Positions 23,926-56,132 of a stretch of DNA of 64,000 nt are shown one piece after another. Numbering within the stretch: position 1 is the first letter of the stretch; each line of letters opens with the position of its first letter. The stretch is from the NCBI GenBank assembly GCA_021735165.1, contig JAIPHP010000001.1, forward strand, positions 23,510-87,509, in the 5' to 3' direction. The notes beneath the pieces were generated by a model that was not told the DNA's origin, did no database searches, and saw only the letters and a program-made list of their open reading frames with translations. The position numbers and the translations under genes are program-made. This DNA comes from Candidatus Woesearchaeota archaeon. GTDB lineage: Archaea; Nanobdellota; Nanobdellia; Woesearchaeales; 21-14-0-10-32-9.

Positions 23926-24831
23926 TCATTTATTTAATGAAACATAAGTAGCTTTGCTTCCTTTAACTAACATTTCATATTTTTTTGCCAGATTTTTTGT
24001 TCTATCAACAATGCTTTTGCCAATCAAACTAAGACTGCTATACTGTGGCTCTAAAGCTTTAACAACACTGCCAACATCTGCTGCGAGAGATCCGTTCTTA
24101 TTTTTTGTATAAGGAACAAAATTTATTCTTTCCTCCGACCAATCTCTAGATTTGCTTTCTCTAAGAAAGTCTTTCTCTTTAGGATTTTTATCGATGCTGA
24201 TGTTAAGATACGTTTCCAGTTGTTTTTCTCGTTTGTTATCAATAATATATTTTTGCTGAATTGTATCTGTAGTCACAGATTTATTTTCTTCAAATCTTCC
24301 TATAGATGAGTCATTTGTAACTTTAAACTCAATTTCTTTATTAAATGCAGTCTTACTAGCTCTAATAATATCATTTGACATATTTATTATTTTTTTGTTA
24401 TAACTTGAAGACTTTGTAATATTTATTACTTTATCCATGACTGCTTGAGCAGTATATAAAAATTGAACTTTATCTTTTGAATCAGGATCAAAAGAAATTT
24501 CATTAAGTTGTTCTTGAGATAATTCTTCGGTTTTATACATAGAAAATGAATTTTCTGGTAATGATTGGTAATTCATATGACTTATAAGATCAACTATTTC
24601 ATTTTCATAGTTTTCAAGATGAAATTGAGGATTTTGAGTAGCTAAATCAGATACATCAAATTTAACTGTTGTTCTTTCATCGGACGTTTCATCCAAATAA
24701 TTATATCTTTTAAGATTAATATCTGATGAATCTTCTTTTGAACCAGTTAATATTCTATTAAGTATAAAACCAGGCCCAAAAAATGCTGCTGTTGATATTG
24801 CTTCTCTACCAAATTTATCGAATTTTGACAT
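23926..24831 (-). CDS. hypothetical protein
   Basis: ORF only. Confidence 0.4.
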   Translation of the reverse strand: MSKFDKFGREAISTAAFFGPGFILNRILTGSKEDSSDINLKRYNYLDETSDERTTVKFDVSDLATQNPQFHLENYENEIVDLISHMNYQSLPENSFSMYKTEELSQEQLNEISFDPDSKDKVQFLYTAQAVMDKVINITKSSSYNKKIINMSNDIIRASKTAFNKEIEFKVTNDSSIGRFEENKSVTTDTIQQKYIIDNKREKQLETYLNISIDKNPKEKDFLRESKSRDWSEERINFVPYTKNKNGSLAADVGSVVKALEPQYSSLSLIGKSIVDRTKNLAKKYEMLVKGSKATYVSLNK

Positions 24832-28826: not shown

Positions 28827-29864
28827 TTATCTTACAATTTCAATTCCTAGTTCGGAACTTAAATGAGCCCTAGCAGCTTCTGCTTGCTTAGCACTTTGTT
28901 TGCCTAAAATCCATGGAGATTTAACACCAGTAATTATAGTCATAACAGTCAATTTGCCCTTCATATCATCTGTGACACGTGCGCCCCAAATAACATTAGC
29001 ATCTTCATCCATAGATTCTGTTACGAGTTCTCCAATTTTATTGATTTCATCCAGAGTCATATCATTTCCGCCATGAACTTGAATAATTGCTCCTGAAGCT
29101 CCCTGATAACTTATATCAAGCAAAGGATTGCTCAAAGCACCTTTAACTGCTTCTTCAACCCTATTAGCCGTATCTGAAGCGCCAACTCCAATAGCTGCAA
29201 CATCTCCATTAGTCATTATTGCCTTAACATCAGCATAATCTAAGTTTACAAGTGAAGGCACCGCTATTGTTTCAACAATTCCTTTAATCATTGTAGCAAT
29301 TAATTCATTAGCTACAGCAAATGCTTGTTGAACCGGCAAATTACCTGCAATTTGAACCAATCTATTATTATCGATAACAATAACAGTATCTGATTGTTTT
29401 CTTAGCATTTGAAGACCAAATTCTGCTTTATCAACTCTAGCCCTCTCAATCTTGAAAGGCATAGTAACTGTGCCTATAACTATAGCACCCATATCTTTTG
29501 CAACTTGTGCTACAACCGGAGCTGAACCTGTTCCTGTTCCTCCTCCCATTCCTGCACATACAAATACCATGTCTGCACCTTTTAAAGATTCTTTTAATTG
29601 AGACATACTCTCCTGAGCTGCTTCTGCACCCTTTTCAGGATAACCGCCAGCGCCAAGACCTCTTGTAACATCTTTACCAATCAGAATTTTCTTATCAGCT
29701 TCTACAACATTTAAATGTTGTTGATCAGTGTTACATGCAAGGATTTCTGCTCCTTGAATACCTTTCATGTAGAGCCAGTTTGTCATATTACATCCTGCTC
29801 CACCCATTCCGACAACTTTTATATTTGCCTGTCCAACATCAATTTGTTCAAATTCTCCGCTCAT
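28827..29864 (-). CDS. ftsZ: cell division GTPase FtsZ
   Basis: [12 protein letters not shown] and [13 protein letters not shown] tubulin/FtsZ signatures, N-terminal GTPase plus C-terminal domain. Confidence 0.95.
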
Positions 29865-35769: not shown

Positions 35770-35939
35770 ACAAGAATCGCTTTTTTTAATCTTTTTACCA
35801 GTATTAACATGAATAACAGACGCCTTAGTCTTAACAAAAATATCAACTGTGTTGCTTCCAACCGAAATTATATCAAACAGACACCCTCACCTCTAAATAA
35901 AAGATTAAAAACAACACTATATAAATTTTACCACAAAAT

Positions 35940-36078
35940 AAGGCGTGTCCCAAATCTTTCTTTTTCTTATTGCAAAGTATTGTTAGCTGCTTCGCAGTCT
36001 AAGTTTCACTAAGAAACACAGATCTTTAACGTGTTCCGCGTTGTGTTTCTCTCAATTGAGCTTTAGAGCAATACAGAT
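35940..36078 (+). repeat. left copy of an approximately 140-bp inverted repeat pair
   Basis: reverse complement matches 40897-41037 with a 70-bp perfect core (AAAGTATTGTTAGCTGCTTCGCAGTCTAAGTTTCACTAAGAAACACAGATCTTTAACGTGTTCC). Confidence 0.85.
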
Positions 36079-36143
36079 GTTAGTGACACGCTCCACAAAA
36101 AAAAACAAATAACACACAAAAAACAACGTCATAAACAAAAAAC

Positions 36144-37169
36144 CTAAAATTTCATATTATCAAGAAAACTATGAACTTCCCACAAATTATCAATAAACTC
36201 TAAACTATCAGAATCCTTAAATTTTTCAAAAAACTCAATTTTCAAAAAATTTGTTTCTTCAACACTAACTCTTGCTAAATCATCAACTTCAATCAACCCA
36301 TAAGGATATCCTAATAACGCAGAATCACAAGAAAAAAAACAAAGCCCGCACAATAAATCAGCTAAATGATCAGATTGAAAACTAAAATAATCTAATCTAA
36401 ACAAAAGATTAGAATTTTCATTAAAAGAAACAACTCCCAAAGATACAGATTCATAAAATTTAGAAATTAGAGGAACAAAAAAAGATTTCAAAGCAAACCT
36501 TTTAGCCACAACATCCATAGCTAACAACAAAGGATACCCTGAGCCCGTCCTTAAATCAGAACCTTTAGCAACACCAATAACAAAAACGCCATTTTTGACA
36601 CAATTTAAAACCACAGAATCATACAAATCAACGTGTTCACCAAAATCCAAATCGCCATCAAGAACAACACAGCAATGTTTATTATCAAAACATAAAGAAC
36701 ACACAAGTTCCAACTCTAGCTTCCTTCTAAAACCATTAATAATACCAACAAAGTCAACACTCTTAGAACTATCATCTAAATAAACGAATTCTTCTCTAAC
36801 AACTCCTAAGGCCACATTTTCAGCAGTTAAAACTATTCGCCCATTTATTTTATCCAAAACTCCACTCACAAAATATTCATCAGAAGAAACTTCAACCTTC
36901 TTCTCGCCAACATAAGCAACATAAGCAACCCTTAAAAAAGAGACACAAAAAAGAGGATTACAAAACAAAACAGAAGAACCACCATCAATAAAAAAAAATT
37001 TTTTATCAGTAAAAACAGATTTTAAAGAAAAAAAATCATTAATGGACAAAGAATTCAAATCAACGCCTGAATTAGCACTGCCAAAACAAAAAGAAAAATC
37101 CACATTAGAATCTACAGTCAAAACCGAACTAATCCTCTTAAATATTTCATCCATAAAAAACAAGAACAA
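36144..37169 (-). CDS. hypothetical protein, tentatively NurA-like nuclease
   Basis: FFFIDGGSSVLF resembles the NurA IDGS motif and the C-terminal GYPYGLIEVDDLARVS resembles the NurA C-terminal motif; weak. Confidence 0.3.
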   Translation of the reverse strand: MFLFFMDEIFKRISSVLTVDSNVDFSFCFGSANSGVDLNSLSINDFFSLKSVFTDKKFFFIDGGSSVLFCNPLFCVSFLRVAYVAYVGEKKVEVSSDEYFVSGVLDKINGRIVLTAENVALGVVREEFVYLDDSSKSVDFVGIINGFRRKLELELVCSLCFDNKHCCVVLDGDLDFGEHVDLYDSVVLNCVKNGVFVIGVAKGSDLRTGSGYPLLLAMDVVAKRFALKSFFVPLISKFYESVSLGVVSFNENSNLLFRLDYFSFQSDHLADLLCGLCFFSCDSALLGYPYGLIEVDDLARVSVEETNFLKIEFFEKFKDSDSLEFIDNLWEVHSFLDNMKF

Positions 37170-37219
37170 CTAAACCATATAAAAATATTAACATCTAAAC
37201 CTCGAAAAAAAAAGAATTA

Positions 37220-37816
37220 TCAAAGTCCCAATTCACTATGAAAAGGCTTAGGCATATTAGAAGGCGTCTTAAGCTTCATATATTGTTTAATCGTATCATG
37301 TAACTTATAAGTTTTAATCCATAAATCAGTCTTCAAAAAATCAATCTGTTTTTTATAAATCCTCTTAATAAACCACTCATCAAAATATTTCAAAATGGGA
37401 TGATTCCTCCAAGAATGCATATAGTCCAAAACAACCCAAGAAGTGCACCTAAGAATAAGATCTCCTTTATTAGTACCAATTTGCTGACCTTTATGAGTCA
37501 CTTTGTGCTTACCCATATTCAAAGTTTGAAAATCAAGCTTGAGATAATACTTATAATACTTATTATTGCTAGGAATATGATGAGTTCTCCACCAAATGTG
37601 ATGCTCAGAATTGCCATTACCAAGAATTTTCTCAAAATACAACGTCTCAATTTTCTCATTACCTGTATCTGGAGAAGTGAAATTATACATTTTAAACCAC
37701 TCATGAATTAACTTGTATATATTCTTTAAATGAAAAATATCCTCGTGCTCAATCTCAAAAGTAGCAACGAACTGAGAATGCAACTTATCCGTAGGATCAA
37801 ACTTTAAATCAGGCAT
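37220..37816 (-). CDS. hypothetical protein
   Basis: ORF only. Confidence 0.4.
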   Translation of the reverse strand: MPDLKFDPTDKLHSQFVATFEIEHEDIFHLKNIYKLIHEWFKMYNFTSPDTGNEKIETLYFEKILGNGNSEHHIWWRTHHIPSNNKYYKYYLKLDFQTLNMGKHKVTHKGQQIGTNKGDLILRCTSWVVLDYMHSWRNHPILKYFDEWFIKRIYKKQIDFLKTDLWIKTYKLHDTIKQYMKLKTPSNMPKPFHSELGL

Positions 37817-37991
37817 AAATACCTTATTAAAAAAAACATTATATAAATTTAATGATTTTCAAGGCAAATATCAAATTCTTAGATTTTTTGACACAAATAA
37901 AACACCACAACCAATAATTTTTTAAAACAACAACAAAATAAGCGTATAAACAACCATTCAAAAAAAAACAAAGATAAACAAAAGAAGTAAC

Positions 37992-39557
37992 TTATGCATC
38001 AACTAAATTACCTTTTCTAGCCCAAAACACTAACAAAAAATAAATCGGAATGCAAAATACCAAAACTCCAACACCAATAATCCTAAAAAAATCCAAATAT
38101 CCAACTCTTGAACCCATAAAAAAAAGAACGGATGTCAAAACAAAAAAAGGAATTAAAATAATAAGACTTGAAAAAGAATAAAATAATTTCCTATCAAAAG
38201 AATTCAGATATCTAGACGCCAGTAAACTATTACCCCCACCAAGCATACTAGCTCCAAAAATACTAAATAAATTAGCTAAAACCAAAGCAGGCAAAAAACT
38301 ATTCATAGATAAGGCTAACGGAAAAAAAGAAACAAGAACAGAGCCAAACACCAACAAAGGAGACAAACCAAGATACTTATTAAACCTAGAAGCAATTATC
38401 GGCCCGAAAATAGAAAACACTAAAGGAATACCAAAAACAAAAACAAGATTCATAAATTTGCCCAAAAAAATAGGCTCAAATTCCGAATAAATATAAACTC
38501 CTGCCAAACTATAAGTTGCTGACTGAAAAACCGCCAAGAACAAAGTAGCAAGACCTAACATCAAAAGATGTTTATTATATAAAAACCTCTTACCTTTTCT
38601 AAAAACAGATTCGATAAAATAAGTCTTAAATTCAAAAAAAGATAATTTCTTAGTAAAATTTCTAAACTTCATCCTAGAAAGCCAATAAGAAGACAAAATA
38701 AAAACAATAGTTGTTAACTCAAAAGCAATCAAAAAACCATGCAAACGAAAACTAAAATCAAAACCAAAAACACTCAAACTAAATAAAACCCCTGACAAAG
38801 GAACCAAATCCATCAAAACCGCACTACCTAAAAAACCAAAAAACATCAATAAAACACCAAAAAACGCAGTAGTAGGAGACACCAACACACTAAAACCCTT
38901 ACTAGAACTCTCTCTAAACGTCCTGAATAAATCACCATAAATAACAACACCTACAGAACCAACTAAAAAACTAACTGCGAAAAGCCAAATAGAACCAAGA
39001 GAAACCGCCAACGCAATAAACAAAAAACTAAACCCAAAAACCAAACCACTAAAATTAATAAACCACACTCTAAAATTAGCTTTATCATAATACTCTCTAA
39101 AAAAAGTGGAAAAAAAAGTGGTGATGCAAGTCCTTAAAACATTCAAAAACCCAATCAAAAAAAAACCTGCACCCGTTAAATAAAACAAAACACTTAAAAC
39201 CTGATTAGACGCCAAACCAAATCCAAACCTATCTAAAAAATACTTTTTCTTAGACAAACTATCATTAGAAACGAAATCATTATGATCTGCATACTCCCGG
39301 GCAATACTTTTCATAGCAACAACTATATCCGACTCAGCATACCCCGCTTTCAAAAGTTTCCTATTAACATCAGAAATGGACAAACCACTCCTCAAATAAG
39401 ATTCAATATCTTTTAACAACTCACCCATAAATAACCCAAAAACAAAATACAAAACCACGTTTTTAAAGTTTTCGAAGTAAAAACATAAAAACAATACAAA
39501 AAGTATTAAAAACCCACAAAAAAGGAACAAAACATAAAAACCAAAAAAAGAATCCAA
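37992..39557 (-). CDS. polytopic membrane protein, possible MFS-type transporter with soluble N-terminal domain
   Basis: more than 10 predicted TM helices. Confidence 0.45.
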   Translation of the reverse strand: MDSFFGFYVLFLFCGFLILFVLFLCFYFENFKNVVLYFVFGLFMGELLKDIESYLRSGLSISDVNRKLLKAGYAESDIVVAMKSIAREYADHNDFVSNDSLSKKKYFLDRFGFGLASNQVLSVLFYLTGAGFFLIGFLNVLRTCITTFFSTFFREYYDKANFRVWFINFSGLVFGFSFLFIALAVSLGSIWLFAVSFLVGSVGVVIYGDLFRTFRESSSKGFSVLVSPTTAFFGVLLMFFGFLGSAVLMDLVPLSGVLFSLSVFGFDFSFRLHGFLIAFELTTIVFILSSYWLSRMKFRNFTKKLSFFEFKTYFIESVFRKGKRFLYNKHLLMLGLATLFLAVFQSATYSLAGVYIYSEFEPIFLGKFMNLVFVFGIPLVFSIFGPIIASRFNKYLGLSPLLVFGSVLVSFFPLALSMNSFLPALVLANLFSIFGASMLGGGNSLLASRYLNSFDRKLFYSFSSLIILIPFFVLTSVLFFMGSRVGYLDFFRIIGVGVLVFCIPIYFLLVFWARKGNLVDA

Positions 39558-39561
39558 AAAA

Positions 39562-40725
39562 ATGCCAAAAAAACTAATACTAACAAAAATATTTGAAATG
39601 AATATACATCAAACAATAACTACCGAACCACAAATAATAACAAAAAACAAAGAAAACTACGTACTAATACCTACTGAAAACGGAGAATTACTAAGCATAG
39701 ACAAAAAAGGAAACCTAAATTGGAAATTTGATACAAAAGAAGAAACAAATGAAATAGAAAAACTTTTCGTAGATACAAAAACAGGGCATGGTATAAACAG
39801 CAAACCTTTGTTAACAACAACAAATGACAAAACTAACATAATCTTTGGAAATGAAAACGGAACAGTATATTCTCTAACAGACAACGGAGAGCTAAATTGG
39901 ACATATAAAACAGAGAGTGCAATAAGAAGCTCCCCAACATACAAAGATAAAAAAATAGTAATAGGAAGCACAGACAAATACATCTACATTCTAGATGAAC
40001 AAGGAAAACTCATAGCAAAATACATAACATCAGAAAAAATAGAAGCATCACCAATACTCTTAAAAGATGAAATAATAATATGCACTAGCGAAGGAAACGT
40101 AATAAACCTGTCAAAAAATGGAACCACAAATTGGACATATAAAACAAAAAACAAAATAATAAGCAACCCCATAATATTTAATCAAAACCAAATAATTGTT
40201 TGCTCAACAGACAACAATGTATACTGTTTAGATTTAAAAGGAAACCTAAATTGGAAATTTGAAACTAAAGGATCTATATATGCAGAACCAGAAATAGGAG
40301 ACATAGACGAAGACAAATTAACTGAAATAATAATAGGAAGTACAGATAACAACACATACATATTAAGTGATAAAGGAATAGAAAAATGGAATTTCGCAAC
40401 AAACTTTTGGGTTGTGGCACAACCAAAAATATTTGAAATAGATCAAAAAAAATACTTAGCAATACCCTCATACGACGGAAATATATATATAATAAATGGA
40501 ACTGGAGAATACAATTACGAATACATACCAGGAATATCAGGAATAGTAATGCAGGAATCAAACTTTTCAGAAATACCAACAAAAGACCCTGGAAAAATAC
40601 AAGGAAAAATACTCTATAAAGAAAACACAGGAGATTTAATCACAGGAATAACAATAAAAAACAAATACTTAGCAGCAACCACAAAAAAAGGGAAAGTAAT
40701 ACTCTACGAAATCAAAAAAACATAA
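39562..40725 (+). CDS. PQQ-like beta-propeller repeat protein
   Basis: repeated NGxLNW(T/K)(Y/F)xT blades (GNLNWKFDTK, GELNWTYKTE, GTTNWTYKTK, GNLNWKFETK). Confidence 0.6.
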   Translation: MPKKLILTKIFEMNIHQTITTEPQIITKNKENYVLIPTENGELLSIDKKGNLNWKFDTKEETNEIEKLFVDTKTGHGINSKPLLTTTNDKTNIIFGNENGTVYSLTDNGELNWTYKTESAIRSSPTYKDKKIVIGSTDKYIYILDEQGKLIAKYITSEKIEASPILLKDEIIICTSEGNVINLSKNGTTNWTYKTKNKIISNPIIFNQNQIIVCSTDNNVYCLDLKGNLNWKFETKGSIYAEPEIGDIDEDKLTEIIIGSTDNNTYILSDKGIEKWNFATNFWVVAQPKIFEIDQKKYLAIPSYDGNIYIINGTGEYNYEYIPGISGIVMQESNFSEIPTKDPGKIQGKILYKENTGDLITGITIKNKYLAATTKKGKVILYEIKKT

Positions 40726-40896
40726 ACTCCTGATTGTTTTCAAGACTAAATTCTGCATACGAAAGCCAGAAAAATCCATCTTTTAAAATGGAGATAAATT
40801 GTTTCAACAAACTTTTATTGCATTAAATAGCTTTTAATAAAATCAATAACACACTTTAGTTATTTTACTTATTAAAAGTTAGGGTTTGTTCCAAAT

Positions 40897-41037
40897 ATCT
40901 GTATTACCCTAGAGCTCAATTAAGAGAAACACGAAGTGGAACACGTTAAAGATCTGTGTTTCTTAGTGAAACTTAGACTGCGAAGCAGCTAACAATACTT
41001 TGTAATACGAAAAAGAAAGACCTAAGGACACACCTTA
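40897..41037 (-). repeat. right copy of the inverted repeat pair (inverse of 35940-36078)
   Basis: see left copy. Confidence 0.85.
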
Positions 41038-41096
41038 AAAATCCAAAAAACATATAAAGTGATACGACTAAGCACTAAGAAAGAGGTGGAGAAATA

Positions 41097-43788: not shown

Positions 43789-44118
43789 GTGATTATAGTG
43801 TTTCATTCGACAATTAATGACATACAAGGATATAAAATTAAAGAAGTTCTGGGCGTTGTTCGGGGAAATAGTGTTCGTGCTAAATGGATAGGTGCAGATT
43901 TCGTTGCTGGTTTAAAGAATCTTACAGGTGGCGAACTAACGCAATACATGGATCTTTTAACTGAAGCAAGAGAAAATGCAATCATCAGAATGGACGAAGA
44001 TGCTAAAAAATTGGGCGCCAATGGAATTATAGGGATGCGCTTTATGACATCTCAAATTGCACAAGGCGCAGCAGAGATCCTTGTATATGGAACCGCGGTA
44101 ATTTTAGAAAAAAAATAG
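43789..44118 (+). CDS. YbjQ/UPF0145 family protein
   Basis: KLGANGIIGMRF and overall pattern of the YbjQ_1 domain. Confidence 0.7.
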   Translation: MIIVFHSTINDIQGYKIKEVLGVVRGNSVRAKWIGADFVAGLKNLTGGELTQYMDLLTEARENAIIRMDEDAKKLGANGIIGMRFMTSQIAQGAAEILVYGTAVILEKK

Positions 44119-44445
44119 GTGATTTTGTTGACAAAAGATTTAGATGATAAAGCTTCAAAGATGTATACTAATAGAAATTCTACTAAAGGCACAGAAAAAG
44201 ACGTTGAAACAAGCACCATGTGGGGTTTTGGTTGTGGTTTCATAGGAATATTTTTAGTAGGAATACCCATTTTAAATATCATATTAGGTCTAGCATCAAC
44301 AATATTGGGAATAATTGGTTTAACCAACATTAAAAAAATGAAAGACAAAAAAGGATTCGGATTTGCTATTTTCGCAATTATTGTTGGCATTATCGAGATA
44401 ATCATAGGTTTAGTAATGACTTTAGGCCTTATTTTATTTCTTTGA
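44119..44445 (+). CDS. small membrane protein (DUF4190-like)
   Basis: two TM helices. Confidence 0.4.
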   Translation: MILLTKDLDDKASKMYTNRNSTKGTEKDVETSTMWGFGCGFIGIFLVGIPILNIILGLASTILGIIGLTNIKKMKDKKGFGFAIFAIIVGIIEIIIGLVMTLGLILFL

Positions 44446-44747
44446 AAAAGTATTCTTTTAAATTATTACTTATCTTTTTTTATGCATCTTCAACTCGCGC
44501 ACTTTGAGGCACTGCCAAATTCAATAAAACACTCTGGTTATTTTTTCTATATTTTTTATTTACTTTAAGAACATATATCTCTTCCGCACTTAACTCCAAA
44601 TCTTCCACCGAATAATTTTCTTCAGGTATTTGTAGGAATCTTCTCATTTTACCACCTCTTACAAAAAGATCTATTTTATGTTTTTAATACCCTGTGAATA
44701 AAGAATTCATGTTTTTTTTACATAAATTTTATAAATAGACTGCGGGT

Positions 44748-45464
44748 GTGAATATTATGAGGGGAGTTCAATTATTTTGCGGTCCTAAATGGTTTATAGG
44801 ATTTGATGCAATCATAGATTTGTTTAGTTTTATAGTTCTCGTGTTAATTTCAATTTATGCATTTAAAGCATATAATATTCATAGGAAAAAATCTTTACTT
44901 TATATGGCATGGTCTATGATCTTGATAAGTATTGCTTTTTTATTCAAGATTTTGACATACGGCGCATTTTATCTAAAAGATAATTTATCTTGGAGCTATT
45001 ATGCTTTAGCAAATATCTCTCACGGATATACTTGTAGTAATATGGGCTTCATTTTGTTGTTTATGATATATGCTTTAGTCACATTAATCGGTTTATTCCT
45101 ATTACTATTTGTTTATCAAAAGGAAAAATCTAAGAGCATGATGCTATTAGTACTATATTTGATAACTCTCTCCTTATTTTTGACTACATCAGCTTATTAT
45201 GTGCTTCATTTGACATCTTTAATAATAACCATTCTTATCACTTTACAATTCTACTATAAATACAAGAAAAATAAATTAAGCACAACCAAATTTTTGTGTG
45301 TCAGTTTTGTTATTTATGCGCTTAGTCATCTATTTTTTCTATTAGCATTTTATAATCCATTAATTTATTTTATTGCAGAAATTATTCAATTATTGGCCTT
45401 TGGCGGCTTATTATATACTTTTATTTCGGTGCTTAAATATGGGAAAAAAACGGGGAAGACTTGA
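44748..45464 (+). CDS. polytopic membrane protein
   Basis: about 7 TM helices. Confidence 0.4.
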   Translation: MNIMRGVQLFCGPKWFIGFDAIIDLFSFIVLVLISIYAFKAYNIHRKKSLLYMAWSMILISIAFLFKILTYGAFYLKDNLSWSYYALANISHGYTCSNMGFILLFMIYALVTLIGLFLLLFVYQKEKSKSMMLLVLYLITLSLFLTTSAYYVLHLTSLIITILITLQFYYKYKKNKLSTTKFLCVSFVIYALSHLFFLLAFYNPLIYFIAEIIQLLAFGGLLYTFISVLKYGKKTGKT

Positions 45465-45720
45465 TATTATTGAAGATATGCTTTTAGCTATTCAAAAGAA
45501 AGGCGGAGAGATTAAACCAACTCACTTAATGTATAAATCTAATCTTTCCTACAAACAGATGAATCTTTATTTAGAAGAATTAATAGGCAAAGAATTTGTT
45601 GAAAGAATCCAAAAAAATGAAGATCGCGAAGTAATAGTTATTAAAGATAGAGGACATCATTTCCTTTCTAAATTGCAAGAAATGCGTCAATTCGAAAAAA
45701 CTTTTGGCTTAGATGATTAA
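45439..45720 (+). CDS. small winged-helix DNA-binding protein
   Basis: start moved to internal ATG (MGKKRGRLDIIEDMLLAIQKKGG...) so that it no longer overlaps the upstream membrane protein. Confidence 0.45.
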   Translation: MGKKRGRLDIIEDMLLAIQKKGGEIKPTHLMYKSNLSYKQMNLYLEELIGKEFVERIQKNEDREVIVIKDRGHHFLSKLQEMRQFEKTFGLDD

Positions 45721-45742
45721 ATATTTTAAAACCATAAAATTA

Positions 45743-45758
45743 TTATTGCGTGCTAGCG
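45743..45758 (-). repeat. inverted solo 3'-end fragment of the PATE-like element (TTATTGCGTGCTAGCG)
   Basis: reverse complement CGCTAGCACGCAATAA is one mismatch from the family 3' end. Confidence 0.45.
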
Positions 45759-45896
45759 TAAGAGATTTAATACAAATAAATACTTTGCATTTATTGTACA
45801 CAAAAGCTTTGCTTTCTTTACATTTAGATTGAGGATTGACTCACATTTTCTTTATTTATAGCTAATATTTTTTCATAAATTCAATCTTTTTTATAA

Positions 45897-45955
45897 TGAA
45901 AATCCCTGCTCCGAGTCTGCTAAGAAACTAGACCCCTTCCGCTAGCGCGCAATAA
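45897..45955 (+). mobile_element. PATE/MITE-like element, minimal 59-bp copy (5' and 3' ends fused)
   Basis: TGAAAATCCCTGCTCCGAGTCTGCTAAGAAACTAGACCCCTTCCGCTAGCGCGCAATAA; preceded by ATAA. Confidence 0.7.
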
Positions 45956-45996
45956 AAGAATCATTGTAAGTATCTTCCAATTCTACCCCCGAAGAA

Positions 45997-46941
45997 TCAC
46001 ATTATTCCAGCCATATACCCTATAAAAAACATGTAGAATATTAACAGCAGCCAACCTTCCCATTTAGTTGTTTTTTTGTCTAGCGTTATAAAGAAATACA
46101 TTAACGTGGCTATTAACATAACTGGAAGACCTAGAGAAATCATTATGTTGGGAACAACAATTTTTCCAAACAAACCTGCTAAACCCATTATTGCAAATGA
46201 ATTGAAGATATTCGAACCTAAAACATTTCCTATTGCCATTTCGGTTCTTCCTTTTCTTGCAGCACTTATACTCACTGCTAATTCAGGGAGCGATGTTCCT
46301 AACGCAACTATAGTTACTGCAAGTATTTCCTTACCTATTTTAAAAATTTCAGACATCGCAACAACAGAATCTACTGTGAATTTTGCCCCAAAATATATTC
46401 CTATAGCGCTTAGTAAAAGTATTATAGGCACAGATAATGGCAATTTTTTCTTTTGAAGTTTATGTTGTTTAACGTTTTTGTTTTGTTCTTCTTGTTTTAC
46501 TGTGTAAATCATATAGATTATTGTAAGCACTATGAAAAGTATTGCTTCAATTAATGAAAATTGTCCGTCCATCAAAGCCAATATTAGCAAGAATGCCGAT
46601 CCTAATAAAAAAGGCATATCTATACCAATCAAATCATATTCCACCTTTATTTTTTTCGCAATTATTGCAACTACTGCTAAAACAAGAAAAATATTCGTTA
46701 TATTGCTTCCAATTACATTACCAACCACAATTTCACTATTATTTGTTACTACTGCAATTATGCTACTTACTAACTCTGGTAATGAGGTTCCAATGGCTAC
46801 AATAGTTACACCTATTAGGAATTTTGGCATTCCAAAATGCAAACCTATTTTTTCTGAAGCATCAGTAAAAAAATCTGAACTTTTCATCAACAGGAAAATT
46901 GCGCCTATAAATAGAATTATAGGACCCATTGTTTCTAACAT
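45997..46941 (-). CDS. CaCA-family Na+/Ca2+ exchanger (YrbG-like)
   Basis: two alpha-repeats GNVIGSNITNIFLVLAV and GNVLGSNIFNSFAIMGLAG. Confidence 0.85.
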   Translation of the reverse strand: MLETMGPIILFIGAIFLLMKSSDFFTDASEKIGLHFGMPKFLIGVTIVAIGTSLPELVSSIIAVVTNNSEIVVGNVIGSNITNIFLVLAVVAIIAKKIKVEYDLIGIDMPFLLGSAFLLILALMDGQFSLIEAILFIVLTIIYMIYTVKQEEQNKNVKQHKLQKKKLPLSVPIILLLSAIGIYFGAKFTVDSVVAMSEIFKIGKEILAVTIVALGTSLPELAVSISAARKGRTEMAIGNVLGSNIFNSFAIMGLAGLFGKIVVPNIMISLGLPVMLIATLMYFFITLDKKTTKWEGWLLLIFYMFFIGYMAGIM

Positions 46942-47021
46942 AAATACCTTTTTTGCGCTTTCATTTATATTGTTTTTTGTTATTGGTAACTATTATATAT
47001 TAGTTAATTATTTTTTTTGCA

Positions 47022-48107
47022 GTGAAACCGTCAGATATTTTCGGAGAAGTTGATTTGAAATTATTTGAAATATCTAAAAAGACAAGACCTATTTTCTACT
47101 CAACACCAGTCAACGAAGAAACTCAAAAAGAGATTTTTTTTACCAATAACTTGAAAAATCCTGAATTTGAGTTTCTACCTTTTGATTCTGACGAAAAACC
47201 TGAGAAACTTATCGACACCTTAAAATCTTTAAAAGTTCCTGATGGCATTTTAAAAGAAGTTTATCAGAAAAAAATTAATGAATTGATTTTGTTAAACGAA
47301 TTAAATCTTTGTAGAGGCAATTTAAGGAAGAGAAAAAAATTATCTAAACAGATTTTTGGTGTTCCTAGCAGTAGGTGCTTTGATTTTGCTAAAAATATTT
47401 TAGTTGGAGTTAGTGGTTTATCTTATTTTAATGATATTGATGTTGAGTATTTTATTAAAGAACTTCGCGGTTGTCTTATTAGGAATAATTTAAATGATTG
47501 GAAAATTGAACTGGTTGATAAAAAAAACATGGTTATTCATCAAGAAACTAAACAAATATTTGTAGGAAAGAACACAATTTACGCTCAGTCAGATATCGAT
47601 CGACTATTAGTTCATGATGTTGGTTGGCATGTTATGAGGGCCGCTAATGGTTTTAGACAAAGGTTGAAATTGTTTGTGTCAGGGTTTCCAGAATATCATT
47701 CTACTGAAGAGGGTGGTGCTTTGCTAGTTGAGCAACTAACTGGAAAACTTGAAATTAATACTTTGAGAATTTATGCTGCGCGCGTATTAGCTGTTGATGC
47801 TTTTTATCGCGGCAAGTCTTTCAAATACATTTTTGATATGTTTCTAAAGTATGGTTTTAGTCGTGATCAATCTTGGAACCTGGCAGTCAGAGTTTTTCGT
47901 GGAGGAGGACTGGGCAAAGACCACTTATATATAGAAGGTTTTTTAAAAATGAAAGAATTTATAAAAACAGAAGAAGATATTAAATTGTTCTATGTTGGCA
48001 AAATAGGTTTCACAAATATTGAGTTAGTTAAGAATTTGATTAAAGATAAATTTGTTGCTCCGGCTCTTTTTGTTCCCGATTTTATCAAAGATATTAAATG
48101 GAAATAG
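47022..48107 (+). CDS. DUF1704-family paralog with HDxxH in place of HExxH
   Basis: LLVHDVGWHVMRAANG...STEEGGALLVEQ aligns residue-for-residue with LLYHEVGVHVRRFQEG...ELEEGLATYYEF of 6080-7174. Confidence 0.6.
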   Translation: MKPSDIFGEVDLKLFEISKKTRPIFYSTPVNEETQKEIFFTNNLKNPEFEFLPFDSDEKPEKLIDTLKSLKVPDGILKEVYQKKINELILLNELNLCRGNLRKRKKLSKQIFGVPSSRCFDFAKNILVGVSGLSYFNDIDVEYFIKELRGCLIRNNLNDWKIELVDKKNMVIHQETKQIFVGKNTIYAQSDIDRLLVHDVGWHVMRAANGFRQRLKLFVSGFPEYHSTEEGGALLVEQLTGKLEINTLRIYAARVLAVDAFYRGKSFKYIFDMFLKYGFSRDQSWNLAVRVFRGGGLGKDHLYIEGFLKMKEFIKTEEDIKLFYVGKIGFTNIELVKNLIKDKFVAPALFVPDFIKDIKWK

Positions 48108-48335
48108 TTAATTTCTTGCCTGTTACTTAATTTTACCCCCTTTGATACTTGATATTGTAAGTGGCTTTTAATGCTTTGTTTGTTTAATTTAACTTCTTTA
48201 GTTTGATGTTAGTTTGATGTATTGATTTTTTCAGATACGATTTAAGTCTTTAATTGTTATTAAATCTTCAATTTAGAAAAATCAGAATTTATATTTTTTA
48301 TAAAACCGGATTTGCAATAAACAAAGCATATAAGA

Positions 48336-50444
48336 TTAAACTATTTCTGATGTGTGATCATGCTTTCTTATCTGTATTATGTTTTCTACAAAGCTTTCCA
48401 TTTTTGGTTCATGACTTACAATTATTGTTTGTCTGCTTCCTAACTGTTCAAGGACATCTCGGACTTTATCTAGTTGATCTGTGCTAAACCCGTCTGTTGG
48501 TTCATCTAAAATTATTATATCTTTTGTTTTTATATTGCTTATATAATCGTTTATTGTTTTGTTTAATGCTAATCTATACGCTAATGCTACTGCTGTTTTT
48601 TCCCCACCACTTAAATTTTCTATTTCGGTATCATAACCGTTTTGATTTATACTTGGCGCAAAAGTATCATTTAATTGCGCTTGTATTGTTTCATCTTCTA
48701 TTAAAGTTTTAAACCAATCTCTAAATCTTTGATTGAATTCTTGGTGTATTGTCGCTAATGTGTGTTTTTCTATATTGACGACTAAATTGATAAAATGGTT
48801 TTTTATCCAGTTATGTATTTTATTTTGTTTTTGTATATTTTTGCTAAGTTCCTGTTTTTTGTTCAGTTCTGTTTGTTTTTGATTCTTTTGTTCTCGTTTA
48901 CCATATATTTTTTGTTTTATTTCCGCTTTAACTATTTCTTGTTGTCTTATTTTTTGTTGCAGTTCCTTCAAATTCTGTTTGTTTTTTAACATCATTTGTT
49001 CATCTATTTTTATTGTTTGAAGTTGCTTAACGTATTCATTCAAGATTTTTTTTAGTTCAACGATACTTATTTTTTGATCTTCCTCTTTCTTTTGGATCTG
49101 TTTTTGTTTTTCTTTTAGAAAAATTATTTTTTCTTGCCTTTTTTCCCAGTTTTCTAGTTTTATTTTTTGTATTTGTTCCTCTTGCCTTTTTTCTCTTAAA
49201 TCCTGTAATTTTTTATTTATTTTTTCCAGATTTGTCTGGGCTATCAAAATTATCTTTTCGTAGTTATGTTTTTGTTTTTCTGATTCAGTTATCTTTGCTT
49301 GCTGTTCTGATTCAACATGAATTTTATGTTCTTCCGTTACTTTTTGGTTGCAAGTAGGACAATTTTGTAAGGAACCTATTTTTAGTATTAGTTGCTTTGC
49401 ATTTTCCGCGTTGTTTTCTAAGATTGCGATTTTATTTTTTGCTAGCAATAATTTTTTTTCGTTTTCTTCTTTTAACTTTTCGTAGTACTCTGGAGTATGT
49501 TCTAAAGCTTTGATTTCTCTTTCTGATTGTTGTTGATTATCTTCTGCAATTTTCGGTTTTGGTTCTGATTTTATTTCTTCTAATTCTTTGTTTATTTCTT
49601 TATTTTGTTCTTCTAAGTTCTCTATGATTTTTTCGTTATTAATTAGTTCTGATTTTTTCATCTGTATTTTATTTTTTATTGTATCGCATAATTTTTCTTG
49701 TTGTTCTATTTTTTCTATTTCTTTTCTTAAATCCTCTTCTTGCATTTCTAATTCTTTAATCACTGTTTTTTCAAATTGTTCTTGGAGCTGTTTTATCTGG
49801 TCTTCTAAATCTTTTATTTCTTTTTTTAATTCTTCCTGACCCTGGACTAAAAGCTCCATCAATTTTATTTCATTCCTTAATTCTTTTGCGTACAAATTAG
49901 CATTTTCAGTTATTCTTTTGTATTTATCTATGTCAAATAGTTTCCTTATTTTTTCCAATCTTTCATCTGAATTTTCAAAAAGAATTAGTTTCATTTCTTC
50001 TTGCGGAGTATATACTGTATACCTAAATATCAAAGATTTTGATTTTGTGAGAAGATCTTCCGGATAACCTATCAAATCTAGAATTTTTGATTTTAATTCC
50101 ACAGCAGTCAGATCAGTCTTTTCAGCATCCATAATTATGTATCCAGAATCCTGTTGTATTCCCACACTTGTTTTTTTCAACGTTCTTTGAATTTCTATAT
50201 TTTTATTATCTATTTCAAAACTTAAATTTATTATACCTTCCCGTTCACCATGTCTTAAAAGAGTAGATCCTGAAATCGTACCTCTTATAAATCCAAATAA
50301 TGCAAATTCTATTGCTAATAAAATAGTTGTTTTGCCAGAACCTATATCTCCAGACAATAAAGTTGAACCTTCATCAAAAGTTATTTCTAACTCTTTGTAA
50401 GATCTTATATTTTTTAGAGAAATTTTTTTGAGGAGCATCTTCAT
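48336..50444 (-). CDS. rad50: compact Rad50/SbcC-like ABC ATPase with CxxC zinc hook
   Basis: Walker A GDIGSGKTT, long coiled coil with central CPTCNQ hook, signature LSGGEKTAVALAYRLAL, Walker B IIILDEPT, H-loop IIVSHEP. Confidence 0.8.
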   Translation of the reverse strand: MKMLLKKISLKNIRSYKELEITFDEGSTLLSGDIGSGKTTILLAIEFALFGFIRGTISGSTLLRHGEREGIINLSFEIDNKNIEIQRTLKKTSVGIQQDSGYIIMDAEKTDLTAVELKSKILDLIGYPEDLLTKSKSLIFRYTVYTPQEEMKLILFENSDERLEKIRKLFDIDKYKRITENANLYAKELRNEIKLMELLVQGQEELKKEIKDLEDQIKQLQEQFEKTVIKELEMQEEDLRKEIEKIEQQEKLCDTIKNKIQMKKSELINNEKIIENLEEQNKEINKELEEIKSEPKPKIAEDNQQQSEREIKALEHTPEYYEKLKEENEKKLLLAKNKIAILENNAENAKQLILKIGSLQNCPTCNQKVTEEHKIHVESEQQAKITESEKQKHNYEKIILIAQTNLEKINKKLQDLREKRQEEQIQKIKLENWEKRQEKIIFLKEKQKQIQKKEEDQKISIVELKKILNEYVKQLQTIKIDEQMMLKNKQNLKELQQKIRQQEIVKAEIKQKIYGKREQKNQKQTELNKKQELSKNIQKQNKIHNWIKNHFINLVVNIEKHTLATIHQEFNQRFRDWFKTLIEDETIQAQLNDTFAPSINQNGYDTEIENLSGGEKTAVALAYRLALNKTINDYISNIKTKDIIILDEPTDGFSTDQLDKVRDVLEQLGSRQTIIVSHEPKMESFVENIIQIRKHDHTSEIV

Positions 50445-50518
50445 TTAGGAAAAATTCGATAGTTTATATTATTTCTTGTGCATGATGCACTATTTAAAGA
50501 TATTAGAACCATTTAATA

Positions 50519-51685
50519 TTATTGGATGTAGTTTAAATCATGACTTTTTGAAAACAACTTGTTATAATTATTAAACATAGTTTTTTGCATATTAGAAGTC
50601 ACATCACTAAGTTTCTTTGCAATATCATCAATGCCCTCAGATACATAATCAGACATAGTATCAGCACAGGGCATAATTCTCTTAGTTACAGGCTCTAATT
50701 TTTCATCAATATACATGAGTTTTATTTGTAACGAATCATTTTTCTTTAAAGATTTTTCAGCTTTACTCAATATTTGTATAGCTAATCCTCCAATCGTCCA
50801 ACCTAGCGTTCCAGACTCCGTATACTCTTTATTTTTAATCAAATTATAGTTTTGTTTTAACACATCAATTGTTCTAGCAGCAACATATAAATTCGTTATC
50901 CCAATAGACAATCCCTGCGCATCCATACCTTGTGTTTCCAGAACTTTTTCAAGACCATAACTCCACGCCATGACTTGACCAAAGCCACTTGGAGAATTTA
51001 ACACTCTAGATAAAGAACTTATATTATTATAGTGTTCTTCTTGTTCAGAATTTATCTTAGTCGCCTTTTTAAAAGCTTGAACGTCTTCTACAGGTATTCC
51101 GTCTAAAAAATAAGCTAATAGCCCAGTATAAGCTAGTTTAGACTGATTATTAGTTGGCAATGGAGCTAAATTAGATAATATTTTTGCTTTCAAATCAGGA
51201 TAATGCTGTTTTTTTGTAAGCTCATTATAAAGATCCTTCCTAAATTCTTTTCTTTCACTACGTAAATTCTTATTTATATTACCATCATAAATGCCTCTCC
51301 ACGTATCCAATAAAGTCTCTTTTACAACCATGCCCTGAATCACAGAATTATAAGTCAAAGCCAATATTTTATCTTTAACATCAATAACTTTTTCCTTTGT
51401 TTCAAATATTACATCTTCAATATTATGAATTAACTCATAAGGATCAAAAGGATCATATTGACCTACATCCACAAATGAGCTCATAGAAACAGCGCCTTTA
51501 TCAGTCATGAAAAGAGGCTCTTTTTTTCTCATATAAAATTTCATTGTATGATTCTTTTTTTTAGAAAAAATGTTCTTTTCTTGCTTCTCAACAGGAATGT
51601 TAACTGAATCCTTTTTTTCCTTTTTTTCTTGCTTCTTTTTTTCGGAAGCACTAAATGCTAAACTTCTGGCTATTGATAAATCCAT
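50519..51685 (-). CDS. hypothetical protein upstream of rad50-like gene (no Mre11 motifs)
   Basis: ORF only; no phosphoesterase motifs. Confidence 0.4.
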   Translation of the reverse strand: MDLSIARSLAFSASEKKKQEKKEKKDSVNIPVEKQEKNIFSKKKNHTMKFYMRKKEPLFMTDKGAVSMSSFVDVGQYDPFDPYELIHNIEDVIFETKEKVIDVKDKILALTYNSVIQGMVVKETLLDTWRGIYDGNINKNLRSERKEFRKDLYNELTKKQHYPDLKAKILSNLAPLPTNNQSKLAYTGLLAYFLDGIPVEDVQAFKKATKINSEQEEHYNNISSLSRVLNSPSGFGQVMAWSYGLEKVLETQGMDAQGLSIGITNLYVAARTIDVLKQNYNLIKNKEYTESGTLGWTIGGLAIQILSKAEKSLKKNDSLQIKLMYIDEKLEPVTKRIMPCADTMSDYVSEGIDDIAKKLSDVTSNMQKTMFNNYNKLFSKSHDLNYIQ

Positions 51686-51791
51686 TATGACCTAGAAAAG
51701 TGTTGATTTCTATTTAAATATTGCGAAAGAATTCTTAAAAATGGCTCACACTCCAAATTATTTAAATACTAACAACCACACTTAACAAAAT

Positions 51792-52205
51792 ATGATAACC
51801 GAACGAGCACTAAGCCTTACCTGCCCAAATAAAAAATGTTCAAAATACAAAAAACACCTGCGAGGAAACATAATAAAATATGGAACACAAAAAAACGGTG
51901 TGCCTAGATACAAATGCTCAGAATGCAAAAAAACATTTACAAAAATAAATAATGTGCGAAAAAATATGAAAATATCAAGAGAAGAATTCATTCATATATG
52001 CAAGTTAATGGCTCAAAAAATGAGCTTTAGAAAAATAAGCCGAAAAACAGGCAAACACCTAGACACAATAAGAGGTGTAGCAAATAGGATTACAGAAAAC
52101 TACAGAAAAATGCGTGATTACTTCAAAGACGATTTAAAAATGGAAGAACAAGAAGTAGAAAGCATGTGGAGTCATATCAAAAAAAAGAAAAAAATCAAAG
52201 AATGA
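51792..52205 (+). CDS. zinc-ribbon plus HTH protein resembling IS1 InsA / transposase N-terminal domains
   Basis: CPNKKCSKY...CSECKK C4 ribbon followed by helix-turn-helix-like region (ISREEFIHICKLMAQKMSFRKISRKTG). Confidence 0.5.
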   Translation: MITERALSLTCPNKKCSKYKKHLRGNIIKYGTQKNGVPRYKCSECKKTFTKINNVRKNMKISREEFIHICKLMAQKMSFRKISRKTGKHLDTIRGVANRITENYRKMRDYFKDDLKMEEQEVESMWSHIKKKKKIKE

Positions 52206-52422
52206 TAAAAACCTGAAAAACAGCAAGAAAATATAATTTTTAAAGAAAAGCATTGAAAACAAGTTTTCAGGGTTTTGAAAGCTTAACTTCTCAAAACCTT
52301 TAAAAACTGAACCTATTTCTCAAACATAAACATTCAGCCCCGCAGATATACCACCAAGATTTTTTCAAAAAATCTTGTAAAAAGAGTACGTTTTGCGGAG
52401 CTCAACAGTACAAAACACAAAA

Positions 52423-52571
52423 AGCCCCGTAGTGTAGCGGCCAATCATCCCAGCCTTTGGCCAACTGGTTTCGCTCGGTTGACACGCAAAGTGACATGCG
52501 CACTTCGTGCTTAGCCCCTGAGACAGATTGGAAGACAGCTGGGGACCTCGGTTCAAATCCGGGCGGGGCTA
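52423..52571 (+). tRNA. tRNA-Gln: tRNA-Gln(UUG) with approximately 76-nt intron at canonical 37/38 position (52461-52536)
   Basis: acceptor AGCCCCG/CGGGGCT, D-arm GTGTAGCGGCCAATCATC (as in archaeal tRNA-Gln), anticodon stem CCAGC/GCTGG with loop CTTTGG|A, T-arm CTCGGTTCAAATCCGGG; CCA not encoded. Confidence 0.8.
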
Positions 52572-52679
52572 TATCTGAGTCTCACGTCTTTTAGTGGACT
52601 CTTATTTTTCTTTATTTTTGCATCAAAAAAGGCAAATTATTTTAAGTTCAGCAATTCTTTAATTTTTAGGTGATATATA

Positions 52680-52964
52680 ATGGGGAATCTTTTTGAGAAC
52701 ACCAATGCAATTGTTAAGTCGTACATTGATAAGGGTAAATTTTATTTGTGTGATTTGGAAGATGAAATTCATACTCAAGATGGTATAATGAGGGTTGCGC
52801 CAGGACTTACAGTGAAAGAACATTTAGACGACTTGGCAGATGAAGGGGTTTTAGTAAAAGAAATTTCTCTTTACAAAAACTCAGGAAAACATGAGATTCA
52901 TTATTCAATTAATAAAGATTTTAAACCCAATTATGAGTTATTTAATATACCTGATATTATGTAA
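52680..52964 (+). CDS. hypothetical protein (cassette 1)
   Basis: ORF only. Confidence 0.35.
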   Translation: MGNLFENTNAIVKSYIDKGKFYLCDLEDEIHTQDGIMRVAPGLTVKEHLDDLADEGVLVKEISLYKNSGKHEIHYSINKDFKPNYELFNIPDIM

Positions 52965-53065
52965 TACAACATCGGAGTTTCATATATAAATAATGGCACT
53001 TGAGGTCGGGCGGGGCTATACCCTATCCACGGTAAATCTGTGGACTCCTTCTTTTAAATGGTTTT

Positions 53066-53740
53066 TTAGTTATCTAATTCTTCTAGAAATAATTTCAGGT
53101 GCGGTTCTGTTTGCAGTTCTTTTATTTCGTTTTGAGTCATTGGTTTGTTTTGGTTGTTTAGTATTTTTTGATTACCCCATGATTCGTTTATTTTTTGCAG
53201 TAGGTATTTGCTTTCTGGGATTAGTTGCTTAATTTTTTCGTTGAAGAAATACTCAACTAAATTTTCTTTTATTGAATTGTTTTCTTGTTCTTGAACAATT
53301 AATTCTTTTGCTATGTAGAGGAATCCTTTTATGCATTTTTGGTAGTCTTCTTCGTCTAGTTTTTCTAGGAATATTCTTATTTCTTGGTTTTTTGCATAGA
53401 GTTTGAATTGTAAATGTTTGTCTGAGTGTCCTTTTTTGTGGTGGTGTATCATTGATTCTTTTGTTTCGCCTTCTAGTGTGAATTTTGATGATTTGAGATT
53501 TAAGCAATATTCGTCTTCTACTAATGAGTTTGTTTCTGTTAGTGTTATTTGTATTTCTTCTTGAGAAAATGTGGTTACATATTCGTCTTCGTATTGTCCT
53601 CTATTGTTTTTGAGGTTTTCAAGATTTGCGTATTCTGGCAGGATGTAGATATATTTTGGTTTACTCATAGTAAATGTCTCCTTATATCGTAGTGTAGCGA
53701 GTCTTTTGATAGGTTGTTTTTTTCGTATGCTTCTGACCAA
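53066..53740 (-). CDS. hypothetical protein
   Basis: ORF only. Confidence 0.35.
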   Translation of the reverse strand: MVRSIRKKQPIKRLATLRYKETFTMSKPKYIYILPEYANLENLKNNRGQYEDEYVTTFSQEEIQITLTETNSLVEDEYCLNLKSSKFTLEGETKESMIHHHKKGHSDKHLQFKLYAKNQEIRIFLEKLDEEDYQKCIKGFLYIAKELIVQEQENNSIKENLVEYFFNEKIKQLIPESKYLLQKINESWGNQKILNNQNKPMTQNEIKELQTEPHLKLFLEELDN

Positions 53741-54273: not shown

Positions 54274-54397
54274 CCATATATAATGTATACAACATATACA
54301 AAGTATATAAATTTTGTGTTTTTGTAATGCAAAATCGGAGATTTATTTATAAATAAACAGATAGGGGTCAGGCAGGCTATTTCATATTTCATATCCA

Positions 54398-55156: not shown

Positions 55157-55176
55157 ATATATAAATTTGTCGTAAT

Positions 55177-55905: not shown

Positions 55906-56132
55906 TATTTTTTTGATAACATTTGATATACATTCTCCGAGATAGGTATTTATAGTATGACAAACGGCAGGGGCTATCAATCTTTGAGAATACTAAAAAA
56001 TCTGTTGATTTTCGGTGTACCAAAAATATACTATTTCTGTGTATATTCGAAGGAAAAACACTTGGGTTTTTAAGAAAAGTTTATATGCGTTCATTTTAAA
56101 TGAAAACATTTATATATTTTAAATGAATACAT

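Follow-up and report, generated by a model that had tools for sequence, protein, structure and literature searches.

What placed two closely similar, oppositely oriented pieces of non-coding DNA on either side of four genes in a woesearchaeal chromosome? The question is raised by a 64,000-nt stretch from a Candidatus Woesearchaeota archaeon (NCBI GenBank assembly GCA_021735165.1, contig JAIPHP010000001.1, positions 23,510 to 87,509 of the forward strand), hereafter the window, in which an original prediction made from the sequence alone had singled out a pair of inverted repeats of about 140 bp around a 4.8-kb segment. The explanations then offered were an invertible segment, a composite element with long terminal inverted repeats, or two opposed copies of a small structured RNA or regulatory module. 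We conclude that the arms are probably two independent insertions of an element resembling a miniature inverted-repeat transposable element (MITE), both now decayed. This reading is preferred because the repeated unit is small and non-coding, has ends of insertion sequence (IS) type, is flanked at its two sites by differing direct duplications and is missing from the corresponding sites of relatives, and because both an IS family and a sister MITE occur in related genomes.

Two inverted copies of a small intergenic unit

The arms 35939-36081 and 41037-40894 are reverse complements over 144 bp with 89.6% identity (blastn), and a repeat finder returned the same inverted pair as 35955-36088 and 40887-41020, 134 nt with 90% complementarity. 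Both are intergenic, with stops in all frames and only tiny open reading frames (ORFs) of at most 27 aa, none of them common to both copies. The original prediction of two intergenic reverse-complement repeats of about 88% identity is thereby borne out, and the hairpin-forming motifs (GCTGCTTCGCAGT, GTTTCACTAAGAAAC and AACACAGATCTTTAACGTGTT) and oligo-T tract (TCTTTCTTTTTCTT) that it described are present; its perfect core exists as well, although the longest perfect stretch is 65 bp and not 70. A 61-nt pattern taken from the core is found exactly two times in the window, where shuffles predict 0 occurrences. The whole unit measures 151-153 bp and is laid out as follows (L numbers are our handles for the relatives' loci and the other contigs compared).

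35942-36092, + strand: left MITE-like copy (151 bp), A-end at 35942 and B-end at 36092, from the alignment to the right copy; absent from the orthologous spacer in L002, L006 and L010
40882-41034, - strand: right MITE-like copy, inverted relative to the left one, B-end at 40882 and A-end at 41034; absent from the PQQ-KaiC spacer (see below) of L002, L006, L008 and L010
35973-36037, + strand: 65-bp core of the left copy, identical to the right core
40938-41002, - strand: 65-bp core of the right copy, identical to the left core

Aligned over their full length (155 columns), the copies differ at 21 positions, none of them inside the core, whereas 20-25% of the positions outside it have diverged. 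An identical run of this size would arise with P = 1.1×10−4 if the differences were placed at random, and their clustering outside the core suggests gene conversion or constraint, as had already been argued from the core alone. An assembly artefact is not at issue: an independent Logan assembly of run SRR12088349 is interrupted exactly 30 nt inside the core, whichever side of the right copy one comes from (contig L011 stops at about 40966 and L001 begins at about 40973), as expected for a genuine repeat at k = 31.

The ends of the unit match those of an IS5-like family

The contig of one relative, L010, carries an IS with a DDE_Tnp_1 transposase gene, whose best NCBIfam match is the IS5 family at 115 bits, below the cut-off of 140 bits. 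This IS begins with GGCTCTGTCCCAAAAGG and finishes with CATTTGGGACACAGCC, and the consensus of the terminal inverted repeat is GGCTSTGTCCCAAA. Copies of 914-955 bp with ends of the form GGCTCTGTCC(C/A)(A/G)AAA were found in four genomes.

L010 15755-16709: IS5-like IS copy
L012 1450-2363: IS5-like IS copy
L013 1454-2373: IS5-like IS copy
L014 1464-2406: IS5-like IS copy
L010 2423-2587: MITE of 165 bp between two copies of GATTTGAA, sharing 92% identity with the left end of the IS over its first 36 nt

At E ≤ 10−10 the transposase has 702 homologues, several of them named as Woesearchaeota transposases. Most lie on contigs about 1-1.5 kb in length, which is what collapsed repeats should give. 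The L010 MITE, where the target duplication is 8 bp, shows that the IS family does spawn MITEs of such size. Further IS ends were sought in viral contigs with the protein and with a 24-sequence alignment, and none was found.

The termini of the window unit, GGCGTGTCCCAAAT and GGGTTTGTTCCAAAT, match the IS terminal inverted repeat, and all four ends of the two copies align to one end consensus.

35942-35956, + strand: left copy A-end (outer), GGCGTGTCCCAAATC (GGC-GTGTCCCAAAT), 14/15 to the L010 IS right end GGCTGTGTCCCAAAT with one 1-nt gap
36078-36092, - strand: left copy B-end (inner), AGCGTGTCACTAACA (AGCGTGTCACTAAC), degenerate
40882-40896, + strand: right copy B-end (inner), GGGTTTGTTCCAAAT, resembling GGCTCTGTTCCAAAA of the L010 MITE
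41020-41034, - strand: right copy A-end (outer), GGTGTGTCCTTAGGT (GGTGTGTCCTTAGG), degenerate

The 11-mer GTGTCCCAAAT is common, letter for letter, to the left outer terminus and the L010 IS terminus. In an unbiased test we scanned both strands of the window (128,000 positions) with a position weight matrix (PWM) built solely from the IS and MITE ends of L010, L012, L013 and L014. The best ungapped match in the window is at 40882, the B-end of the right copy, and the best match with one gap at 35942, the A-end of the left copy (22.9, compared to 17.2 for the runner-up). Both top matches thus sit at repeat boundaries and point into the element. Two positions also co-vary between the arms within each copy (GCG/CGC in the left one as opposed to GTG/CA(A)AC in the right one, and TATTGC/GCAATA as opposed to TATTAC/GTAATA), which fits either concerted evolution of terminal inverted repeats or selection on a hairpin.

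A separate direct repeat around each copy

Short direct repeats, which differ between the two sites, flank the two copies.

35931-35938, unstranded: left flanking repeat of the left copy, CCACAAAA, probable target-site duplication; 10/11 if read as CCACAAAATAA
36093-36100, unstranded: right flanking repeat of the left copy, CCACAAAA, 8/8
40872-40879, unstranded: left flanking repeat of the right copy, TTAAAAGT
41035-41042, unstranded: right flanking repeat of the right copy, TTAAAAAT, 7/8 relative to TTAAAAGT

Allowing offsets of up to 3 nt, an 8/8 match is found at 0.22% of random window positions and a 7/8 match at 2.5%. Read as repeats of 10-11 bp (10/11 on the left, 7/10 on the right), the duplications abut both ends of each copy, with mismatches.

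Relatives keep the genes and lack the repeats

The KaiC/RAD55-like protein encoded beside the right arm has hundreds of homologues in Woesearchaeota and Nanoarchaeota, and the neighbourhoods of four relatives were compared (KaiC identity 83% for L002, L003 and L004; 79% for L006; 72% for L010; 69% for L008 and L009). By tblastx, collinearity of the window with L002 and L006 runs from about 30.1 to 41.9 kb, with all orientations equal. The common order is a helix-turn-helix (HTH) protein, a methyltransferase, a pyruvate phosphate dikinase (PPDK)-like protein, a DeoC aldolase, a PfkB kinase, a 198-aa protein, a membrane protein, a pyrroloquinoline quinone (PQQ) propeller and KaiC. The repeat is absent at the syntenic sites in L002, L003, L004, L006, L008 and L010, and the spacers of L002 and L006 (130-196 nt between PfkB and the 198-aa gene, 82-87 nt between PQQ and KaiC) bear no similarity to it. 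Searching all fetched relatives' loci with the repeat (nhmmer and blastn) returned a match only in a Logan contig from the same sample, and blastn against phages and plasmids at a distant setting returned none. The arms are thus additions that two intergenic spacers have acquired in this lineage.

Inside the arms, Pfam recognises a NurA-like protein (weakly, E = 8×10−5) and a PQQ-like beta-propeller, while the 198-aa protein and a 521-aa membrane protein match no family, which confirms the set of genes that had been read from the sequence (NurA-like, hypothetical, membrane protein, PQQ propeller). The NurA-like gene is missing from L002 and L006 and present at the same locus in L010, where its product is 30% identical (E = 6×10−25) and adjoins a 75%-identical 198-aa gene; it is therefore an old resident of the locus. 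Since the relatives keep this order without the repeat, we regard the enclosed genes as residents and not as cargo. A comparison of the 4.8-kb block with relatives, which had been proposed as a check, shows the genes to be conserved and syntenic (except for NurA in L002 and L006) and the repeats to be absent there.

Several features of these genes and spacers deserve mention in their own right. The NurA-like gene (36144-37169, - strand) evolves very fast, with 30% identity to its L010 orthologue compared to 75% for the neighbouring 198-aa protein; only seven database proteins match it at E ≤ 10−5, one of them the own protein of this metagenome-assembled genome (MAG), and the gene has been lost at the locus in L002 and L006. 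Its surroundings have a DNA-repair flavour, with HerA and Mre11 in L010 and Rad50 (and possibly Mre11) in the window. On the other side of the left arm, PfkB homology extends to 35880 (- strand), where L002 has a TTG start behind the ribosome binding site GAGGTGAGGG and the window has CTG at the same codon; the first canonical start lies at 35769, 37 codons downstream of this CTG, which could be a non-canonical start, a sequencing error or the sign of an N-terminal truncation. Beside the right arm lies the following spacer.

40726-40881, unstranded: extra 156-nt spacer from the PQQ stop to the right copy, mostly without counterpart in the 65-90-nt PQQ-KaiC spacers of the relatives

It holds a 23-bp AT-rich hairpin (40828-40850 and 40859-40881). 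By eye, 40834-40856 resembles the L002 spacer, and one hairpin arm appears to be an inverted copy of ancestral spacer sequence that can still be recognised in L002.

A second MITE-like family, unrelated to the window unit, was seen in L010. It is about 90 nt long, with ends TAGTTCAYGAC and GTCGTTGRCTA, and has four copies in 17 kb, all intergenic.

L010 4604-4692, + strand: copy of the ~90-nt repeat
L010 6720-6806, - strand: copy of the ~90-nt repeat
L010 8510-8558, + strand: copy of the ~90-nt repeat
L010 12467-12558, + strand: copy of the ~90-nt repeat

The first two are inverted relative to each other and flank the cassette of the 198-aa and NurA genes, which in L010 is itself inverted relative to the window. 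Short interspersed repeats are thus associated with rearrangement at this locus.

Both copies lie 16 nt from a TATA box

Each copy faces the neighbouring promoter with the same end, and at the same distance of 16 nt from the TATA box.

35918-35925, - strand: TATA box of the PfkB-DeoC operon, TTTATATA, 16 nt outside the left A-end; compared with the PfkB upstream region of L002
41051-41058, + strand: TATA box of KaiC/RAD55, CATATAAA, 16 nt outside the right A-end; promoter conserved in L002, L006, L008 and L010

These boxes belong to the host PfkB and KaiC promoters, which are conserved in relatives without the element, and A-rich sequence resembling a B recognition element (BRE) lies beside them on the outward side only. 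We then asked how often an IS or MITE terminus has a TATA box with its inner edge 13-17 nt outside, counting up to one mismatch to TTTAWATA or its complement, in seven elements from five genomes (the two window copies, the L010 MITE and four IS). Nine of the 14 ends have one, compared to 7% of random intergenic window positions (binomial P = 7×10−8). In L010 the 14-nt spacers of three ends are alike and the inverted repeat of the IS extends 17 nt beyond the GG, so for the IS copies the TATA box may be part of an extended terminal repeat; the spacing also owes something to survivorship in a compact genome. We put forward only as a speculation, and an unlikely one, that integration of the IS5-like IS and of its MITEs is directed to a set distance upstream of archaeal BRE/TATA promoters, perhaps guided by DNA bent by the TATA-binding protein and transcription factor B (TBP/TFB). 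If the tight spacing does reflect a choice of target, it would give a first hint that an archaeal IS can be guided to promoters. A related possibility, equally speculative, is that the PfkB and KaiC promoters have recruited the 65-bp core as an upstream regulatory module or RNA.

Two decayed insertions: the proposed history and what weighs against it

Under the preferred reading, the unit would be a non-coding, non-autonomous element of about 151 bp, belonging to or mobilised by a DDE IS of the IS5 family that is widespread in Woesearchaeota, with a transposase presumably acting in trans on the terminal inverted repeats GGCTSTGTCCCAAA. Its two insertions would have struck A-rich intergenic DNA, one ahead of the PfkB-DeoC promoter and the other ahead of that of KaiC/RAD55, and each would have duplicated 8-11 bp of target. 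The inverted orientation of the copies and the four genes between them would then be incidental, because the genes are resident chromosomal ones. Both copies are probably old and no longer mobile, given their 20-25% divergence outside the core and the single recognisable end left in each. The identical central 65 bp would most simply be a short gene-conversion tract between the inverted copies, and the pair could, as a by-product, serve as a substrate for homologous recombination inverting the 4.8-kb segment.

A series of observations weighs against this history. No transposase or recombinase was recognised by Pfam in the 59 ORFs of at least 120 aa scanned across the window, no IS with matching ends lies in the ~68 kb of this genome examined, and there is no third copy of the repeat in the window (blastn) or in the 4.3 kb by which Logan contig L015 extends it (~68 kb in all). 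Exact core sub-patterns gave 0 matches in public genome contigs (26-mer and 20-mer) and in metagenome contigs (22-mer and 20-mer), and an 18-mer and a 19-mer gave one chance match in viral contigs (L007), with dissimilar flanks. The similarity to the IS is confined to about 15 nt of the terminus, and each copy has one good end and one degenerate end. The ends match each other weakly within a copy: on the left GCGTGTC/GACACGC is a perfect 7 bp, or 14/17 with gaps (local alignment P = 0.03), and on the right the local alignment of the ends gives P = 0.24. Ungapped PWM scores of 11 occur by chance elsewhere, and it is therefore the coincidence of position and orientation that carries the argument. 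The direct repeats are A-rich, low-complexity sequence and abut the GG terminus on one side only, being 2-3 nt off on the other. Finally, what is conserved in the window unit is its centre and not its ends; in active MITE families the reverse holds, the ends usually being the best conserved part.

Alternative explanations

It is very improbable that the arms bound an invertible 4.8-kb segment (36093-40881) that flips by programme or frequently. Perfect inverted identity over 65 bp suffices for homologous recombination, and the inverted cassette of L010, with inverted copies of another short repeat at its sides, shows that such inversions occur in the lineage. However, Pfam identified no site-specific recombinase in the window, and the assembled orientation is that of the relatives without the repeats and the ancestral one for this clade. 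The 99-kb MAG contig, moreover, spans both copies, so that one orientation dominates, although a read is longer than the 65-bp core; the Logan contigs, broken inside the core, carry no linkage. Flipping the segment would alter neither of the outward promoters and thus has no obvious switch function; as an event of homologous recombination it is possible. Origin of the copies by a local inverted duplication of an intergenic module, through template switching or recombination, would account for there being only two copies, 4.8 kb apart, for the weak inverted repeat within each and for the lack of a transposase nearby, and would make the IS-like ends coincidental or an older remnant. We consider it unlikely: the homology stops within a few nt of the IS-like termini on all four sides, the DNA beyond is promoter or terminator sequence of the host with orthologues in relatives, the direct repeat around one copy differs from that around the other, and the best PWM matches of the window fall exactly on the termini. 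As for a composite transposon or genomic island with the four genes as its cargo between long terminal repeats, the bracketing of a gene block by inverted repeats is what it predicts, but three of the four genes (198-aa, membrane and PQQ) are syntenic and co-oriented in relatives without the repeats, and the fourth, NurA, is ancestral, being orthologous to the L010 gene at the same locus. The arms contain no transposase gene, and each has its own direct repeat in place of one around the block. This option of the original prediction, left also without a transposase or recombinase by Pfam anywhere in the window, can hardly be upheld.

A functional explanation of the pair asks more of the unit itself. 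The unit or its 65-bp core could be a structured RNA or a protein-binding regulatory module, perhaps an exapted MITE, its core kept by purifying selection. In its favour are the 0 differences in 65 bp next to 20-25% in the flanks, and both the equal orientation of the copies and their equal 16-nt distance to the TATA box of the downstream promoter. The several hairpins, the two compensatory double changes in closing stems and single substitutions that are G-U compatible in the inward orientation speak for it too. Against it, Rfam has no match to the repeat even at E ≤ 10; the folding z score is only −0.5 to −1.9 for each copy on both strands, and for the RNAalifold alignment, folded on both strands, shuffling the columns gives −1.2 and −1.9, from two sequences only, which are too few for proper covariation testing. 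The copies have no common promoter or terminator of their own, a T5 tract follows about 25 nt from the inward start, and the left copy has the strong T6-T9 terminator runs of NurA on one side and the PfkB promoter on the other, so that transcription is unlikely to read through into it; nor did the relatives or the public collections searched contain a homologue of the unit. We hold this explanation to be rather doubtful: of the suggestion of two opposed copies of a small structured RNA or regulatory module, what stands is that there are two copies of one small non-coding unit, and what falters is the RNA, with no Rfam match and a weak structural signal. Over the window, Rfam gave no match at gathering score and, at E ≤ 10, only a chance PreQ1 (E = 1.5) outside the repeat, and ARAGORN detected neither tRNA nor tmRNA. 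The scan for sigma-70 promoters and terminators, whose model is not suited to an archaeon, was uninformative.

Wider context of the window

Up to about 41 kb the window has a very strong strand asymmetry that is independent of gene orientation, with third-codon AT skew of +0.2 to +0.86 and GC skew of −0.3 to −0.75 on the + strand. The skew fades over 41-44 kb and is then about zero or slightly reversed (44000-64000). This change coincides with the end of L002 synteny, and in L002 the skew continues past KaiC; it could mark the origin or terminus of replication, or the breakpoint of a recent rearrangement. Substitutions polarised from the strand mutation bias gave no consistent signal by eye. 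Within the skewed region, 17992-20249 and 23926-24831 are islands with almost no skew, one of them with an AbiEii toxin gene (PF08843), and look recently acquired.

The skew change near 41-44 kb and the dyad GTTTC-N5-GAAAC raised the thought of a replication origin with origin recognition boxes (ORB), which we rejected: in the closest relative the skew persists across these genes although the repeat is missing there, the skew changes where synteny ends, the repeat is confined to this lineage, and a search of the genes showed no Orc1/Cdc6. The template repeat/variable repeat (TR/VR) pair of a diversity-generating retroelement (DGR) was discarded because both copies are intergenic, Pfam shows no reverse transcriptase in the window and the differences are not adenine-specific. 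Integron attC sites were set aside in view of the opposite orientations, the syntenic genes and the lack of an integrase.

Elsewhere in the window we noted the following genes.

6080-7174, - strand; 7155-8036, - strand; 47022-48107, + strand: two MATCAP-family ORFs (PF08014, tubulin tyrosine carboxypeptidase-like), one of them overlapping an ATP-grasp (GSH-S/RimK-like) gene
28827-29864: FtsZ
54398-55156, 58066-58770 and 61078-61830: three TrmB-family regulator genes
58940-59902 and 60016-60867: two Fic/DOC genes, within 8 kb together with the TrmB-family genes, in the low-skew right part

Comparison with known systems

On the preferred reading of two decayed insertions, the feature is of an ordinary kind: one more MITE family, with a likely IS5-type parent, in the DPANN/Woesearchaeota, a group already reported to be MITE-rich. 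A published census reports a woesearchaeal genome to be among the most MITE-dense archaeal genomes, with 105 MITEs per Mb (PMC11602168). For annotation, the consequence is that neither mobile island nor phase-variable cassette is a fitting name for the NurA, membrane protein and PQQ block. Short inverted MITE copies do sit where gene order changes between close Woesearchaeota.

Inverted repeats around a DNA segment are a feature that the window has in common with Hin/Gin/Cin, fimS and the shufflons. Such site-specific invertible segments have sites of about 10-30 bp, an adjacent serine or tyrosine recombinase and an internal promoter or alternative gene ends, and the window has none of these (no short sites, no adjacent recombinase, no promoter or alternative gene ends inside the segment). 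In comparison with the IS5-family (DDE_Tnp_1) elements of L010 and L012-L014, the window unit matches over the terminal 14-15 nt, has no transposase gene and is not similar beyond the termini. The closer likeness is to the prokaryotic MITEs that derive from IS elements, as do SM1-SM4 of Sulfolobus: these too are small (~150 bp), non-coding and intergenic, with IS-like ends, flanking direct repeats, a transposase encoded elsewhere, and presence or absence between close relatives. The window unit departs from them in that two copies are seen, the ends are decayed, the centre is conserved and no partner IS is seen in the available sequence. A parallel in form is offered by Correia/NEMIS, ERIC and similar intergenic repeats found near bacterial promoters. 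They are unrelated to the window unit in sequence, and the host here is an archaeon with BRE/TATA promoters; like the window unit, however, they are about 100-150 bp long and lie near promoters, and they have inverted ends, as the window unit may, with a potential effect on neighbouring genes or on recombination.

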